From a virus (lineage: Duplodnaviria; Heunggongvirae; Uroviricota; Caudoviricetes), in IMG/VR virus record IMGVR_UViG_2534681697_000017, positions 1 to 19,108 of that record: a stretch of 19,108 nucleotides of DNA; one strand, given 5' to 3'. Below, one piece after another: positions 1 through 18,567 of this stretch. Position numbers and translations under genes: made by a program. Below the pieces are notes generated by a model that saw only the letters and a list, made by a program, of their open reading frames with translations, was not told where the DNA came from and did not search any database. Position 1 is the stretch's first letter, and each line of letters opens with the position of its first letter.

Positions 1-277
1 TGATAAAGCGTATTCAGGGCGCGCATTGCGCAACGAGCTGAAAAATAACGGTATAAAGGCAGTAATCCCCCGAAAGTCAAATGAGAAAATGGCATCGGAT
101 GGACGTGCACAGCTTGATCGTGATGCGTACCGCAATCGTAATGTCGTTGAACGGTGCTTTGGGCGGCTGAAAGAATATCGCCGCATCGCCACGCGTTACG
201 ACAAAACGGCGAGAAATTACCTGGCGATGGTGAAACTGGGCTGCATCCGACTCTTTTATCAACGCTTACGTAATTAA
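1..277 (+). CDS. DDE transposase, C-terminal portion (IS4/IS5 superfamily, IS427-like tail); 5' end lies outside the window
   Basis: The frame is open from base 2 to the stop at 275-277. The tail VVERCFGRLKEYRRIATRYDKTARNYLAMVKLGCIRL matches the conserved C-terminal block of IS5-family (IS427-group) transposases as I recall it. The exact IS is not recognised. Confidence 0.6.
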   Translation, partial: DKAYSGRALRNELKNNGIKAVIPRKSNEKMASDGRAQLDRDAYRNRNVVERCFGRLKEYRRIATRYDKTARNYLAMVKLGCIRLFYQRLRN

Positions 278-288
278 GGGACACAGCC
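1..288 (+). mobile_element. Partial IS element (right end), identity unresolved, abutting truncated IS600
   Basis: Transposase stop at 277; IS600 homology begins at 289, so the element terminus lies within about 278-288 (GGGACACAGCC). The boundary is inferred only from the loss of IS600 identity. Confidence 0.45.
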
Positions 289-793
289 TAATCTCCAGTT
301 TTAGCCGCTCATCACTTTGTTTTCTGTCTGAGGGTTCATGCTGTACCCAGTTGTAATAACCGCTCCTGGATACACCAAATACCTGACACATCGCTTCAAT
401 GGGAAATTGTTGTCGCCATTGTTCGATTAACGCGTATTTTTCAGCGACTCCTGTGCAAAATACGCTGTTGCTTTTTTTAATATATCTCGCTCAAGGCGAG
501 CTTCATTTAACGCCTTACGCAGTTGCAGAATTTCAGATTCCAGTTCAGCCACCGTGCGGGAACCAGGAGTACCGAGCCCTTTTCTGGCGGCGGTAACCCA
601 TTGTCCTAAAGTGCCTTCAGGAAGGGATAATCGGGAAGCGCCTTCACTGATCGAAAGTTGATTTTCAAGAACCGTTCTGACAGCTTCGGCTTTGAACTCT
701 TTAGAGTAACGTTGGGTTTTTCTGCTCATTATTAGCTCCTTCTGATGCCATTCTATTTCAGGAAGGAGTGTCCGTTAAACTCAGGCTACCTCA
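289..793 (-). mobile_element. IS600 (IS3 family), truncated copy: left inverted repeat, orfA and the first ~45 codons of orfB
   Basis: The reverse complement of 289-793 matches 2416-2920 of the complete IS600 copy at every position I compared by eye (terminal TGAGGTAGCCTGAGTTTAACGG through CTGGAGATTA); identity stops at 288/289. Confidence 0.85.
427..729 (-). CDS. IS600 OrfA (IS3-family transposase HTH subunit)
   Basis: 100-aa ORF identical in protein sequence to the orfA at 2480-2782; recognised as IS600 OrfA from memory. Confidence 0.85.
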   Translation of the reverse strand: MSRKTQRYSKEFKAEAVRTVLENQLSISEGASRLSLPEGTLGQWVTAARKGLGTPGSRTVAELESEILQLRKALNEARLERDILKKATAYFAQESLKNTR

Positions 794-952
794 CTGCGCA
801 ATTGGCATTGTGCGAATTATTCATTCAGTAAAAAAGATTGAGCGTTTTTTCACTGAAGAATAACAGCACAAATAAAACACACGATTAAATAAGAAAACAT
901 GAAAACAATCCGCACTCGCGGAGGTATCCATATATATAAACACGAGGTTAGC

Positions 953-1216
953 ATGCTCAGGACAAATCAAAAAATACTGAAGGATGCATATTTTGACAGG
1001 GGGCGAGATCTCGCAAAGCTTTGCGCCGCACTAAAAGAAATCAGTCAGTATTTCACTGATATTGAAGATGATATAGCTAACAAAGGTGCCAGTATTACAT
1101 TAGCGAACAGAGCACATTTTATGGGCTTTAATGTTTTCACAGCCATAAGAACATTAAAAGAACAAAAAGAAGAAATAGAAAAGCTCAAATACAGACATAA
1201 AGCCAAGAGGGTGTAA
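953..1216 (+). CDS. Hypothetical protein, first gene of a coupled six-gene cassette
   Basis: ORF open from 899; preferred start is ATG 953, preceded by GAGG (944-947) at 5-nt spacing. The stop overlaps the next start (TAATG at 1214-1218). No recognisable family. Confidence 0.4.
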   Translation: MLRTNQKILKDAYFDRGRDLAKLCAALKEISQYFTDIEDDIANKGASITLANRAHFMGFNVFTAIRTLKEQKEEIEKLKYRHKAKRV

Positions 1217-1419
1217 TGGCAATTAAGCATTTTCCTGTCGTTCGTTTCACCTCCAGAGACCGCGAATATGAGGTCGACGAACGACTGATTACCACTATCG
1301 ACAAACATCGTTCGGAAAAGGATGCACACCACATCTACCTCACTGACGGCACTTACTTCTGCGCCACCAACGTGGCGCGGGTGAATCTTATCCGACAGGT
1401 ACAGGAGCCACGTAGATGA
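1216..1419 (+). CDS. Hypothetical protein (67 aa)
   Basis: ATG 1216 preceded by AGAGGG; stop overlaps the next start (ATGA at 1416-1419), indicating translational coupling. Confidence 0.45.
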   Translation: MAIKHFPVVRFTSRDREYEVDERLITTIDKHRSEKDAHHIYLTDGTYFCATNVARVNLIRQVQEPRR

Positions 1420-1682
1420 CCATTCTGGACTACATCGCTACTCATCCGGGTTGTAGCGGCGGAGAGATCGCCGCAGCACTGAATACCCCAACCACAGCCA
1501 TTAATGCTGAGTTACGCCAACTTTGGCGCGGCGGCTTGGTCATCAGAACAAACCGCAGCACAGGTGGTCGCGCTCGCAAAACAGGAGGCCAGGCTTCTTA
1601 CCACGTAAACCCGATGCCATTCGGGTGTGGCAATCCACTTACTCACATGTTTAACCAGCTGCTGAAGGAAGCCAGAGCATGA
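1416..1682 (+). CDS. Hypothetical protein, possible winged-helix DNA-binding protein (88 aa)
   Basis: ATG 1416 with AGGAG upstream. The N-terminal LDYIATHPGCSGGEIAAALN...LRQLWRGGLVIR pattern resembles a winged-helix fold; that assignment is an inference. Confidence 0.45.
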   Translation: MTILDYIATHPGCSGGEIAAALNTPTTAINAELRQLWRGGLVIRTNRSTGGRARKTGGQASYHVNPMPFGCGNPLTHMFNQLLKEARA

Positions 1683-1978
1683 GCGCCATCAACCACCAGA
1701 AGCTACGCGAACTGGCATTTTCCCTGCAACGAATGGCAACGCCTCAAAAATTACTGGCATTTCGCGCAATGCTCTCGTCGTCTGCTGTGCTGGCACTGCT
1801 GGATGACCTGGAGCACGCCAGAACCACGGCTCCTGCCATTCGCCTGACACTCCATCATGAAATCGCTGATTTCTGCGCAACATTGGAGGCGCCAGGCGAA
1901 CCGGAAACGCCGGAAGCAATACAGCAAGAACTGCTGCAACGCATTGACAAGGTTTTCGATTTTTTCCTTAACCAGTAA
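1679..1978 (+). CDS. Hypothetical protein (99 aa)
   Basis: ATG 1679 overlaps the upstream stop (ATGA); GAAGGAAG ribosome-binding site upstream. Confidence 0.45.
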   Translation: MSAINHQKLRELAFSLQRMATPQKLLAFRAMLSSSAVLALLDDLEHARTTAPAIRLTLHHEIADFCATLEAPGEPETPEAIQQELLQRIDKVFDFFLNQ

Positions 1979-1988
1979 GGGCCGCAAC

Positions 1989-2192
1989 ATGAACAACAAG
2001 ACATGGTTTCGCGCATACATGTGGGCGCTGGTATGCGTCCTTGTCTCTCTCATTCTGTATGTAGGGGTACTCCCCCGAATGATTTCATCAGACAGCTCCT
2101 TCCTGGTATTGCTGGGCATTTTCATTGCCATGCTGTACCCGGCAGGCGTTGTTCGCCTTTTCAGTAAGTACATCAAGGAAATCAAACAATGA
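1989..2192 (+). CDS. Small membrane protein, two predicted transmembrane helices (67 aa)
   Basis: ATG 1989 inside the longer listed ORF 1857-2192. Two hydrophobic stretches (WALVCVLVSLILYVGVL and FLVLLGIFIAMLYPAGVV). Stop overlaps the next start (ATGA at 2189-2192). Confidence 0.45.
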   Translation: MNNKTWFRAYMWALVCVLVSLILYVGVLPRMISSDSSFLVLLGIFIAMLYPAGVVRLFSKYIKEIKQ

Positions 2193-2428
2193 AGAAATTC
2201 AAACTCTTTCAGATTCTCCCGCTTTTTGCCGCCATCCTGCTGGTTGGTTGCGATCGCGTTGAGCCAGGTAATGTGGGCATCAAAGTCAACAAGCTGGGCG
2301 ATGACAAAGGCGTTGGCGAAGTGGTTGGCGTTGGCCGCTACTGGACTGGCTGGAATACCGAGGTTTACATCTTCCCGACCTTCAAACAAATGAAGACCTA
2401 CGATGAGCCGTTCAGTGAGGTAGCCTGA
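2189..2428 (+). pseudogene. Lipoprotein with SPFH/band-7-like N-terminus, truncated by IS600 insertion
   Basis: Signal peptide plus lipobox (LLVGC). GNVGIKVNKLGD...YWTGWNTEVYIFPTFKQ resembles the start of SPFH-domain proteins. The last four codons and the stop (2417-2428) are encoded by the IS600 left terminus, so the native 3' end is missing. Confidence 0.5.
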
Positions 2429-2479
2429 GTTTAACGGACACTCCTTCCTGAAATAGAATGGCATCAGAAGGAGCTAATA

Positions 2480-2782
2480 ATGAGCAGAAAAACCCAACGT
2501 TACTCTAAAGAGTTCAAAGCCGAAGCTGTCAGAACGGTTCTTGAAAATCAACTTTCGATCAGTGAAGGCGCTTCCCGATTATCCCTTCCTGAAGGCACTT
2601 TAGGACAATGGGTTACCGCCGCCAGAAAAGGGCTCGGTACTCCTGGTTCCCGCACGGTGGCTGAACTGGAATCTGAAATTCTGCAACTGCGTAAGGCGTT
2701 AAATGAAGCTCGCCTTGAGCGAGATATATTAAAAAAAGCAACAGCGTATTTTGCACAGGAGTCGCTGAAAAATACGCGTTAA
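2480..2782 (+). CDS. IS600 OrfA
   Basis: 100-aa ORF with GGAG upstream; sequence recognised as IS600 OrfA (MSRKTQRYSKEFKAEAVR...). Confidence 0.9.
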   Translation: MSRKTQRYSKEFKAEAVRTVLENQLSISEGASRLSLPEGTLGQWVTAARKGLGTPGSRTVAELESEILQLRKALNEARLERDILKKATAYFAQESLKNTR

Positions 2783-2817
2783 TCGAACAATGGCGACAAC
2801 AATTTCCCATTGAAGCG

Positions 2818-3636
2818 ATGTGTCAGGTATTTGGTGTATCCAGGAGCGGTTATTACAACTGGGTACAGCATGAACCCTCAGACAGAAAACAAAGTGATGA
2901 GCGGCTAAAACTGGAGATTAAGGTGGCACATATCCGCACTCGCGAAACATATGGAACCCGGCGGCTCCAGACGGAGCTGGCAGAGAATGGCATCATCGTT
3001 GGTCGTGACCGACTGGCACGTCTTCGTAAGGAGCTAAGGCTACGCTGTAAGCAGAAACGCAAGTTCAGAGCGACTACGAACCCGAACCACAATCTGCCAG
3101 TTGCGCCAAATCTGCTGAACCAGACGTTCGCTCCTACAGCACCAAATCAGGTCTGGGTGGCGGACCTGACGTATGTTGCCACACAGGAGGGATGGTTGTA
3201 CCTCGCTGGCATCAAAGATGTTTATACGTGCGAAATTGTCGGCTACGCCATGGGAGAGCGCATGACAAAAGAGCTGACAGGTAAAGCCCTGTTTATGGCG
3301 CTCAGGAGCCAGCGCCCACCTGCCGGGCTAATCCACCACTCTGATCGAGGTTCACAGTACTGCGCATACGATTACCGGGTCATACAGGAGCAGTTTGGTC
3401 TGAAAACATCAATGTCGCGTAAAGGTAACTGTTACGACAACGCTCCGATGGAAAGCTTCTGGGGAACGCTGAAAAATGAGAGCCTGAGCCACTATCGTTT
3501 TAATAACCGGGATGAAGCCATCTCAGTAATACGGGAATACATTGAGATTTTCTACAATCGTCAGCGTCGTCACTCTCGTCTGGGGAATATCTCCCCGGCA
3601 GCCTTCAGGGAAAAATATCATCAGATGGCTGCTTAA
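2818..3636 (+). CDS. IS600 OrfB (DDE integrase-type transposase); normally made as an OrfAB fusion by -1 frameshifting
   Basis: 272-aa ORF with an rve-type DDE core (HSDRGSQY...CYDNAPMESFWGTLK). Coordinates are from the first in-frame ATG; the frame is open upstream into the orfA overlap. Confidence 0.9.
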   Translation: MCQVFGVSRSGYYNWVQHEPSDRKQSDERLKLEIKVAHIRTRETYGTRRLQTELAENGIIVGRDRLARLRKELRLRCKQKRKFRATTNPNHNLPVAPNLLNQTFAPTAPNQVWVADLTYVATQEGWLYLAGIKDVYTCEIVGYAMGERMTKELTGKALFMALRSQRPPAGLIHHSDRGSQYCAYDYRVIQEQFGLKTSMSRKGNCYDNAPMESFWGTLKNESLSHYRFNNRDEAISVIREYIEIFYNRQRRHSRLGNISPAAFREKYHQMAA

Positions 3637-3660
3637 AAAAAGAACAAATGGTAGTGTCCG

Positions 3661-3879
3661 CTATTGCCAGTACACCTCAAAATCACGGGTATGTAGAATT
3701 TTCGATGGTTCACCTGAATAAACCTCATCCAGAGCTCTAACGTATTCGAGAGTTTCAGCGTTGGACAACCAGTGATCCAGACGCTTCCCGAAACGTTTTG
3801 CAATATCAGTGGCATTAATCCAGCCATCAGTATTGAAGCGGATAGGTTCGCCTTTGTAATTCAGTGGAACGATATTCAT
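3661..3879 (-). pseudogene. KilA-N-like phage protein (possible antirepressor N-terminal domain), 3'-truncated by IS600
   Basis: The N-terminus MNIVPLNYKGEPIRFNTDGWINATDIAKRFGK resembles KilA-N domains. The ORF runs into the IS600 right end (native sequence only 3680-3879). Confidence 0.45.
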
Positions 3880-5261: not shown

Positions 5262-5550
5262 AGCCTCACCTCCGCAAATAACGGATGGCGTAGTTCTTAT
5301 ATTGGGAAGGGAAAAAGAAGGCCGCAGCGTAACTGTCACTGATGAATTCAGGATAGCCAGTGGCTACGGCTCAGTTTTGGTTGTGCTGTTGCTGGGCGGC
5401 GATGACGCCTGTACGCATTTGGTGATCCGGTTCTGCTTCCGGCATTCGCTTAATTCAGCACAACGGAAAGAGCATTTATGACTCGCATCGCGGGAAAAAG
5501 CCCACGGTAGAGAGTCGAACTCTACAAATGCTCTTACCTGTTGTGAAAAC

Positions 5551-15541: not shown

Positions 15542-16227
15542 CACCAGAAATTATTCTCCAGCGAACTGGCGTGGATATTACCAGCCTCGACCAGGGCGAT
15601 GATGGATGGCACAAGCTGAGACTCGGTGTTATCACTGCTTCAGAAGTTCACAATGTGATAGCAAAGCCACGTTCCGGCAGCAAATGGCCTGATACAAAAA
15701 TCTCATACTTCCACACCCTGCTGGCTGAAGTTTGTACCGGCGTGGCACCGGAAGTTAACGCTAAGTCGCTCGCATGGGGAAAGCAATACGAAGATGATGC
15801 CCGTGCCATCTTCGAATTTATCGCGGATGTTACCGTCTCGGAAACGCCAATAATTTTTCGTGACGAAAGCATGCGCACCGCCTGCTCTCCCGACGGTTTA
15901 TGCAGCGACGGTAACGGCCTTGAGCTTAAATGCCCCTTCACTTCCCGCGACTTCATGAAGTTCCGGCTTGGCGGCTTTGACGCTATCAAGCCTGCTTACA
16001 TGGCCCAAGTGCAATTCAGCATGTGGGTTACAGACAAGGACGCCTGGTACTTCGCCAACTACGACCCACGCATGAAGCGTGAAGGCCTGCATTATGTCGT
16101 GGTCGAGCGGGATGAAAAGTACATGACGAGTTTTGATGAGATGGTGCCGGAGTTCATCGACAAAATGGACGAAGCACTGGCGGAAATTGGTTTTGTATTT
16201 GGAGAACAATGGGGGGTTAATAACTAA
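15538..16227 (+). CDS. YqaJ-type (lambda-exo-like) phage exonuclease, PD-(D/E)xK
   Basis: 229-aa ORF with motifs SPDGL...GLELKCP...AYMAQVQ; paired with recT upstream; GCGAGG ribosome-binding site. Confidence 0.8.
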
Positions 16228-17174
16228 TGGATGAAGTGATTTTTACTTATAACGAAGAATCAGCACTGACCGCCGGACAAGGTGGTTTTATTACCGAAAC
16301 GGGTGCGCATATCATTAACATCACCGAAGCAGAACTCAAGCAATCAGAAAAAGGTGCCCGATTCATTGAGTTTTCTGGAGAATCCGACGACGGACGGAAA
16401 ATCCAATATCTCAGTGTTTGTGTTCAGAAGAATGACGGCACTGAAAATAAATTTGGGGCGAGCATTATTCACGCCATGATGGGATGCACAGGAATTGGGC
16501 AGTTAACGCAACATATGGTTTCCGTCAGTGAATCAAAACAAATATCTGAATGCTATGTGGCGCAAAGGAGGCAAACAGTGAGCGAAATTGACTATCAGGC
16601 ACTGCGTGAAAAGGCAGAGAAAGCAACGTGGGGTGTGTGGTCGCTCGAATATGGAGAGGAGAAACTTGATGCTGATGATGCGCTAATTCACCGTGAAGTT
16701 GTTGGATATCTTCCTATTTGCAGAATTGAAGGAGCGCATCCTGAAAGCGGTTTCGATGAAGATTTCCAAATGGAACAGCAGGCCAATGCTGAATTCATCG
16801 CCGCAGCCAATCCGGCTACTGTGCTGACACTGCTGAGCGAGCTGGAAACAGCAAAAAAGCGCATAGCAGAACTGGAAGCCAAACCTGTAAGCCAGACTTA
16901 CAAGTTGAATGAGATGTCGGGCAACTCTCCGGTAATTCCGGATGGTTGGATAAGCTGTAGTGATCGAATGCCTGAAAAGGGCCAGAACGTACTTATTTCG
17001 GTGAATTTCGATAGCTCTCTGGTTGAACCGCTAATATGCTCCGCACGCTATACCGGAGGTACATTCCGGCGTGGAGATGTAACGGTTAAGCCAGGTAATG
17101 GTATTGAACAGGCAACCCACTGGATAGACTGGCCCCCTGAATCTCCAGACAACCAGTATCACTTAAATAAGTGA
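16227..17174 (+). CDS. Ead/Ea22-like protein with C-terminal DUF551-like domain; last ~15 codons and stop supplied by the IS2 terminus
   Basis: [22 protein letters not shown] is Ea22-like; the C-terminal ...ATHW resembles the DUF551 end. The reading frame continues into the IS2 left inverted repeat ([16 protein letters not shown]). Confidence 0.6.
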
Positions 17175-17357
17175 TAGTCTTAATACTAGTTTTTAGACTA
17201 GTCATTGGAGAACAGATGATTGATGTCTTAGGGCCGGAGAAACGCAGACGGCGTACCACACAGGAAAAGATCGCAATTGTTCAGCAGAGCTTTGAACCGG
17301 GGATGACGGTCTCCCTGAACCGCCCCGGGTTTCCTGGAGAGTGTTTTATCTGTGAAC

Positions 17358-18240
<883 letters not shown>

Positions 18241-18244
<4 letters not shown>

Positions 18245-18567
18245 TTTTTCCAGAGGCGGTCGAACTCCGCCTTCGCAAAATAAGCGGAAGCCTGGCGAAG
18301 GATATCGTTACTGCGGCGCAGTTCACGATTTTCACGCTCCAGCTCTTTCAGACGCTGACGTTCAGCGGTGGTGAGCCCTCCATCACCGCCCCCGGTATCC
18401 CGCTCATGCTGGCGAACCCAGACACGCAGAGTCTCCGGCGTACAGCCAATCTTTGGAGCAATGGAACAAATTGTCGCCCATTGTGAGTCATATTCGCCCT
18501 GACTTTCCAGAACCATACGGACTGCCCGTTGACGGACTTCGGGGGAAAAACGAGTATTTTTAGTCAT
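18241..18567 (-). CDS. IS629 OrfA
   Basis: 108-aa [42 protein letters not shown]... recognised from memory. Confidence 0.9.

Follow-up and report, generated by a model that had tools for sequence, protein, structure and literature searches.

Four coupled small genes between inverted IS600 copies in Shigella boydii, a probable relic of a P88-like early lytic operon

Introduction

Four small genes of a Shigella contig, each overlapping the next, lie between insertion sequences and next to the lysis genes of a prophage. To which phage do they belong, and what might they do for it? The window, meaning the whole stretch of DNA that was analysed, is by exact protein matches contig AERN01000035.1 of Shigella boydii ATCC 9905 in full (19,108 bp). 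An earlier note on this DNA had taken the genes, here called g1 to g4, for one functional unit and had placed them after the lysis genes of a lambdoid prophage, where accessory or phage-exclusion cargo is often carried. Our analysis leads elsewhere: window positions 797–2412 are very probably a relic of a P88-like prophage of the P2 family, the middle of its early lytic operon left in S. boydii ATCC 9905 by two inverted IS600 copies.

Results

Two IS600 copies delimit the locus on both sides. A repeat search found an inverted repeat of 513 nt, 100% complementary, whose IS600 arms lie at 284–796 and 2413–2925, and the sole non-IS DNA between the two is therefore 797–2412 (1,616 nt; Table 1). 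The earlier note had put the genes at the head of an IS600-bounded segment; they do lie between IS600 copies, and the segment has to be corrected to these 1,616 nt. IS600 interrupts a gene at either border. On the left it cuts the 37-aa ORF, of which the last 22 codons are left (797–863), and on the right it cuts the SPFH gene after codon 74, where a chimeric 79-aa ORF runs on to 2428.

The outer surroundings of the left copy record further insertions. The left IS600 is itself cut at 284 by another IS, whose transposase C-terminus lies at 26–277 (DDE_Tnp_1_2 match). Nested IS insertions of the kind seen at window positions 1–283 are typical of Shigella. The inward ends of the two IS600 copies (794–799 and 2408–2415) are flanked by one and the same trinucleotide, read towards the IS: at the right copy CAG precedes TGAGGTAGCC, and the left copy has CTG, the reverse complement. 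These flanks could reflect a target preference or be a trace of how both copies arose.

Table 1. Features of the IS600-bounded fragment and its surroundings (window coordinates unless a locus is named)
Feature	Coordinates	Strand	Description
Left IS600	284..796	-	Partial; orfA-proximal end towards the fragment; 513-nt inverted repeat
Left IS600 orfA	427-729	-	From the ORF list
37-aa small membrane-protein gene, 3' end	797..863	+	P88 gp07 homologue; from alignment with P88 and E. coli prophages
A/T-rich inverted repeat/hairpin	822..858	.	Arms 824-835 and 846-857; spans the end of the 37-aa ORF
Short GC hairpin TCCGCACTCGCGGA	909..922	.	Intergenic; kept in g1-less P88 too
g1	953..1216	+	87-aa predicted helical protein (105 aa from 899); PHROG 21900, function unknown
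g2	1216..1419	+	67-aa orphan, predicted all-beta five-strand small barrel or sheet; PHROG 3459; P88 gp08 homologue
g3	1416..1682	+	88-aa predicted winged helix, MarR_2-type wHTH at residues 2-53; PHROG 1687 'MarR family'; P88 gp09 homologue
g4	1679..1978	+	99-aa predicted helical protein, Ead/Ea22-like motif at residues 25-51 (sub-threshold); PHROG 4144; P88 gp10 homologue
g5	1989..2192	+	67-aa membrane protein; PHROG 1130; P88 gp11 homologue; paired with the SPFH gene
SPFH/Band_7 lipoprotein gene, 5' part	2189..2412	+	276 aa when intact; P88 gp12; truncated by IS600
Right IS600	2413..3678	+	Complete copy; orfA 2480-2782, orfB 2818-3636
'Derepression' protein gene	L002 12595-12825; L003 12490-12720; L001 5282-5512		Outside the window

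Nucleotide identity and gene order both assign the fragment to a P88-like phage. Positions 797–2412 are 95% identical over 1.62 kb (1,622 nt) to prophages of 18 complete E. coli genomes and 89% identical to Escherichia phage P88 (Xuanwuvirus P88, NC_026014), a myovirus of the P2 family (Peduoviridae, genus Xuanwuvirus). P88 and all intact prophages examined have one gene order: integrase, C-type repressor, cox, DUF4761, hypothetical, DUF4754, 37-aa, (g1), g2, g3, g4, (67-aa membrane protein, SPFH), derepression, 121-aa and gpA, with optional genes in parentheses and all genes on the lytic strand. The 37-aa CDS is annotated just upstream of g1 in intact prophages. Behind gpA, P88-like prophages carry partition or other cargo genes, then portal and terminase. 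The identical order recurs in 80 IMG/VR loci and around a g2 relative of 50% identity, and at every locus examined the homologues of g1–g4 sit in P2-like prophages.

The genes thus belong to a P2-type cox-to-gpA early operon, on the lytic strand and in company with integrase, C repressor, portal, terminase and P2 tail genes; the E. coli P88-like prophages with equivalent genes are integrated beside pdxB. Because the cox-to-gpA order holds in all relatives examined, we read 797–2412 as the middle piece of such an operon. The window does not contain the operon intact, with early promoter, cox and gpA: 797–2412 alone survives between the IS600 copies.

Two further features of P88-like phages lie outside the window. 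Just upstream of gpA they encode a 76-aa 'Derepression' protein (PF25738, weak; 'derepression protein' in P88), which presumably resembles the epsilon antirepressor of satellite P4. In many of them gpA is followed by ParM/StbB-type partition genes, a hint of plasmid-like maintenance or of cross-talk with other P2-type prophages.

The neighbouring lysis genes belong to a different phage. From about 3.7 to 18.6 kb the window holds a lambdoid prophage on the minus strand, with genes for KilA-N, Rz, lysozyme, holin, NinG, primase and helicase. The closed genome CP026875.1 carries the same IS600-flanked fragment, there adjacent to ppa and to a gene for a PemK toxin; next after the fragment comes a gene for a serine-protease autotransporter (Peptidase_S6). 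Comparison of window positions 3636–3700 with positions 5448–5500 of L174, the CP026875.1 locus, shows that the two sequences part precisely where the right IS600 ends on its outer side, window position 3678; the apparent site behind the lysis genes is therefore a junction at IS600, not a cargo insertion site in a lambdoid phage. The difference between the two sequences stems either from an IS600-mediated rearrangement between strains or from a chimeric join in the draft assembly. Nor is the cassette a lambdoid moron downstream of a lysis cassette, for a complete IS600 separates it from the lysis genes. The proposal that it is cargo of the lambdoid prophage has to be given up: it is a piece of a different, P88-like phage. 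On the far side of the right IS600, the adjoining KilA-N ORF (3661–3879, minus strand, 72 aa) is probably truncated by IS insertion, and the lambdoid prophage would therefore be cut at this IS600 as well.

The small genes form a coupled run that is longer than first described. Their coordinates and junctions were given correctly in the earlier note: g1 and g2 share TAATG at 1214–1218, g2 and g3 share ATGA at 1416–1419, and g3 and g4 share ATGA at 1679–1682. The run does not end at 1978, since g5 and the SPFH gene follow, g5 starting 10 nt after g4 and overlapping the SPFH gene in another ATGA, so that the coupled run comprises six genes. All four of g1–g4 are under purifying selection (dN/dS 0.17–0.37 against homologues), and judged from sequence they are real genes. 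Each has its own PHROG family, and databases already list their products, from thousands of E. coli, Shigella and Salmonella genomes, as hypothetical, MarR-family or ead/Ea22-like proteins. NCBIfam equivalogs and solved structures gave no match for g1–g4, and we found no literature on these genes under Xuanwuvirus or the P2-like early operon.

Across relatives, gene order never varies but gene content does. Our conservation set comprised 80 g2-anchored IMG/VR viral loci; junctions and the presence of g3 were scored in 77 loci. The g2/g3 ATGA junction is kept in all loci that have g3, and the g3/g4 ATGA in 64 of the 77, which upholds translational coupling as one part of the idea that the genes act as a unit. 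Conservation as a single four-gene unit fails: g1 is present in 5 of the 80 loci, and g3 is absent from 11 of the 77, where g2 directly overlaps a g4-like gene. Downstream of g4, the membrane-protein and SPFH pair is found in about 10 of the 80. The g2 relative of 50% identity has a wHTH gene and a PHROG-4144 protein downstream and two unrelated genes in the g1 slot. A more distant one (44% identity, L183) has neither g3 nor g4; its neighbours are an exonuclease, a ParE-like gene, a Dam methylase and a DUF4406 protein.

From these loci g2–g3–g4 emerge as the common core, and the membrane-protein and SPFH pair as an optional module. That the stretch varies in gene content between related phages is supported, and 'accessory' is a reasonable label for it. 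The earlier note had itself named two findings that would speak against it, homology to genes of a known phage module and a failure of the genes to be conserved together; both are found, and its interpretation largely fails.

The optional pair extends beyond P2-like phages. DNA of the 5' part of the SPFH gene is about 89–90% identical to genes labelled 'serine protease' or 'lipoprotein' in phiP27 and many Stx2a-converting phages, and the membrane-protein and SPFH module (1989–2412 in the window) is therefore common to P2-like and lambdoid/Stx phages. PHROG labels g5 'moron, auxiliary metabolic gene and host takeover'.

The first gene, g1, is an insertion of low GC content, carried by few loci, in a slot whose content varies. 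Its GC content is 0.31–0.43, against 0.53–0.58 for g2–g4. At 90% identity the family falls into no more than nine clusters, each from E. coli, and g1 occurs in none of 50,697 deposited phage genomes; the copy in the window is 100% identical to E. coli copies. Alignment with P88 sets the insertion point after window position ~930, and the alternative start codon at 899 therefore falls in shared non-coding sequence. The earlier note had begun the gene at 953, and this choice stands against 899, the start called by most pipelines. A GAGG lies 5 nt upstream of 953 and a Shine-Dalgarno is absent at 899; the 87-aa form is annotated in six of the nine g1 protein clusters; the codon at 899 is GTG in several homologues; and 899 lies within DNA that g1-less P88 shares as non-coding sequence. 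The 87-aa form is thus probably the likelier product. In a PDB profile search, g1 gave only matches with E > 0.1.

The second gene encodes an orphan with a confidently modelled fold. The AF2 model of g2 is all beta (pLDDT 90.5). Its family counts just 16 representatives among 1.84 billion. When species-representative genomes were scanned with the g2 alignment, only two true loci emerged, and the PDB profile search with g2 returned only E > 0.1. For g1, g2 and g4 alike, nothing characterised matched significantly in sequence or structure.

Two further leads concern g2. A 1,016-aa repeat protein of the representative library (P0142) contains five copies of a segment 41% identical to g2 residues 19–53, with the motif 'NHFIYLADGTKVCFTYVYD'; this may be a beta-hairpin motif shared with g2, or chance. 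The match runs through a 'HFIYLADGTKVCFTYV'-like strand pair and was set aside as a short-motif resemblance. PHROG 19053 spans both g2 and g3 and prompted a search for fusions with a concatenated g2+g3 query. The longer matches (P0005, P0008, P0012–P0018, P0022) were discarded as frameshifted or chimeric products of low-quality assemblies, and the concatenated query gave no Rosetta-stone evidence for the pair.

The third gene carries the DNA-binding signature of the core. An N-terminal winged helix had been suspected in g3, and the match to Pfam MarR_2 bears this out (29.1 bits against a gathering score of 27, E 1.1e-6); an identical protein is named 'MarR family winged helix-turn-helix transcriptional regulator' at NCBI, and PDB profile matches are marginal (E 0.05–1). 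The C-terminal tail is invariant (NPMPFG..NPLT..FNQLLKEAR). The resemblance to the MarR family lies in the wHTH core. Unlike canonical MarR proteins of ~140–150 aa, g3 lacks the N- and C-terminal helices that form the dimer and the ligand pocket; with 88 aa and a wHTH that begins at residue 2, it does not have the full-length MarR architecture. Its predicted domain layout is that of a minimal wHTH protein, not of a canonical MarR.

The fourth gene bears a distant or partial resemblance to Ead/Ea22. The family of g4 is confined to Escherichia and close relatives, its structure model is helical at low confidence (pLDDT 60.8), and a PDB profile search gave only E > 0.1. What g4 has in common with lambdoid Ead/Ea22 is a motif of about 27 residues, LLAFRAMLS..AVLALLDDLE; sub-threshold matches to Ead_Ea22 occur in 15 of 16 family members (best family E 1.2e-4), some of which NCBI labels ead/Ea22-like. 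The match of g4 itself reaches 14.8 bits, below the PF13935 gathering score of 27 that marks membership, and covers positions 57–83 of the 139-position profile, or one fifth. By these scores the likeness appears to go no further than that.

The A/T-run inverted repeat noticed upstream of g1 is real, and a role as terminator may be considered for it. Its arms are complementary at 11 of 12 positions across a 10-nt spacer. It is the sole repeat of such quality in 797–2412, and at least one arises in 4.7% of composition-matched shuffles; as RNA it folds with -11.8 kcal/mol (z = -3.3 against shuffles). The repeat lies inside the 3' end of the IS600-cut 37-aa ORF and is kept in homologues, where its variants show no clear compensatory changes. 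The site corresponds to the terminator position in P2 and 186; the stem is a weak A/U one, and a U-tract is absent downstream. No sigma-70-like promoter was found on the plus strand inside 797–2412, and an Rfam search of 700–2500 gave no match.

Discussion

We propose a conventional role for these genes in the phage from which they came. By analogy with annotated P2 and 186, infection by an intact phage, or its induction, would lead to their joint transcription from the early promoter, which the repressor controls. Ribosomes would re-initiate at each TAATG or ATGA junction, a hand-over that would tie the yields of the products together, and the coupling would hold ribosomes on the message through the small ORFs as far as gene A, which is essential. 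Most likely the products are early proteins that the phage can do without and that act, in lytic development, on regulators or DNA. Among them, g3 may be a small MarR-type winged-helix DNA binder or regulator, the small beta barrel g2 and the helical, Ead/Ea22-like g4 its usual partners, and g1 a separately acquired small helical protein.

In S. boydii the genes have lost this setting. Since the promoter, cox, A and all late genes have been lost, the cassette is most probably silent, unless transcription reads through from IS600 or flanking DNA, and the fragment is most probably an inert, still-intact and recently stranded relic. All of its ORFs are intact and g1 is identical to the E. coli copies, which could instead reflect retention by selection.

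The same genes invite bolder readings. In one, g2–g3–g4 would be an early module specific to P88-like phages with a new host-takeover, counter-defence or replication-licensing function, and g1 an independently acquired small inhibitor in a swap-in slot before the trio; we consider this unlikely. If it were true, an orphan beta-barrel protein, essentially without relatives outside the lineage, would be joined with a minimal winged helix and an Ead/Ea22-like protein.

In another, g1, g2 and/or g4 would act as lytic growth begins and inhibit host or prophage immunity or some process of the host. We rank this early counter-defence or host takeover as the most interesting reading still standing and at the same time as distinctly unlikely. 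The genes belong to an early operon, and their proteins are small, fast-evolving and lineage-restricted, g2 with 16 representatives among 1.84 billion and g1 with nine clusters and 0 of 50,697 deposited phage genomes. The slot that g1 entered as a low-GC insertion is filled by different genes in other phages, and a distant relative has a Dam methylase, an exonuclease and a ParE-like gene in the same stretch. The argument is purely one from context, however: the proteins show no similarity to characterised anti-defence proteins in the libraries searched, and a role in regulation would suit the DNA-binding wHTH of the core trio no less well.

Prophage defence is a poorer fit. As superinfection-exclusion cargo the genes would be expressed in the lysogen and act perhaps through the membrane-protein and SPFH pair; the variable gene content of the stretch between related phages, the presence of that pair downstream and the PHROG 'moron' label on the membrane protein are what such cargo might show. 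A search of PADLOC-DB 2.0 with the six proteins and their full-length neighbours found nothing significant, however (the best matches, g3 at E 0.0074 and g5 at E 0.008, are marginal), and the full-length SPFH protein and the other neighbours were without a match. Early-operon genes are repressed in a lysogen, and g1–g4 lie on the lytic strand of a repressor-controlled early operon, with no promoter of their own detected. The fragment is also not part of a lambdoid prophage. For P2-like phages the defence hotspot is documented between gpA and gpQ, not at the position of g1–g4 (PMC9122126). We regard exclusion cargo as very improbable, and with no significant PADLOC match and the documented hotspot elsewhere, this suggestion of the earlier note is not sustained.

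The gpA–gpQ hotspot offers one observation of its own. In the P88-like E. coli M9682-C1 prophage (L012), the stretch between gpA and portal (15958–18485) holds three genes on the minus strand, of 269, 114 and 459 aa and without a Pfam match; the set is a candidate uncharacterised defence system, unrelated to g1–g4.

A type II toxin–antitoxin addiction module of g2 (beta barrel) and g3 (wHTH), coupled through ATGA, would have the typical layout of two small overlapping genes, one with a DNA-binding domain, yet it is scarcely credible, as 11 of 77 loci have g2 but no g3, the g2 relative in L183 stands without g3 and g4, PADLOC, Pfam and NCBIfam gave no toxin–antitoxin or abortive-infection match, and a promoter of its own was not found.

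What remains, with the P88-like relic as the preferred reading, is chiefly a corrected annotation: a 1.6-kb, IS600-trapped relic of a second, P2-like prophage, not lambdoid cargo. The locus exemplifies the dismantling of prophages by IS600 in Shigella boydii, and the way in which IS copies in draft contigs can bring remnants of unrelated phages together. In its middle, the early operon of the P2 family consists of a mosaic of small uncharacterised genes. This stretch is distinct from the gpA–gpQ hotspot and could be mined, and to such mining the window adds nothing unique.

Set beside known systems, the locus represents no departure from a known kind. P88 gp08–gp12 are direct homologues of its genes (g2/gp08 E 1e-36, g3/gp09 2e-43, g4/gp10 1e-56, g5/gp11 1e-41, SPFH/gp12), with the same gene order, strand, overlaps and position between cox and gpA. 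The two differ in that P88 is without g1, whereas the window copy has lost to IS600 all that preceded the 37-aa ORF and all that followed SPFH codon 74. In P2 and 186, orf80–83 and CP80–84 occupy the same place in the early operon, between B or dhr and gene A, with the same TAATG/ATGA-type overlaps. The record of 186 describes CP80–84 as 'not essential' and translation to the end of orf84 as apparently necessary for translation of A. The proteins of the window show no sequence homology to the P2 and 186 ORFs at that position (all phmmer E > 0.1), so the likely non-essentiality of g1–g4 is a matter of analogy only. The domains differ as well, DksA-like zinc finger, DUF2732, DUF5405, exonuclease and PAPS reductase in P2 and 186 against a predicted wHTH, beta barrel and Ead/Ea22-like protein in the window. 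On protein comparison, then, orf80–83 and CP80–84 appear as positional analogues of g1–g4, not homologues, and the overlapping starts and stops that first drew attention to the locus are the normal architecture of the early operon across the P2 family.
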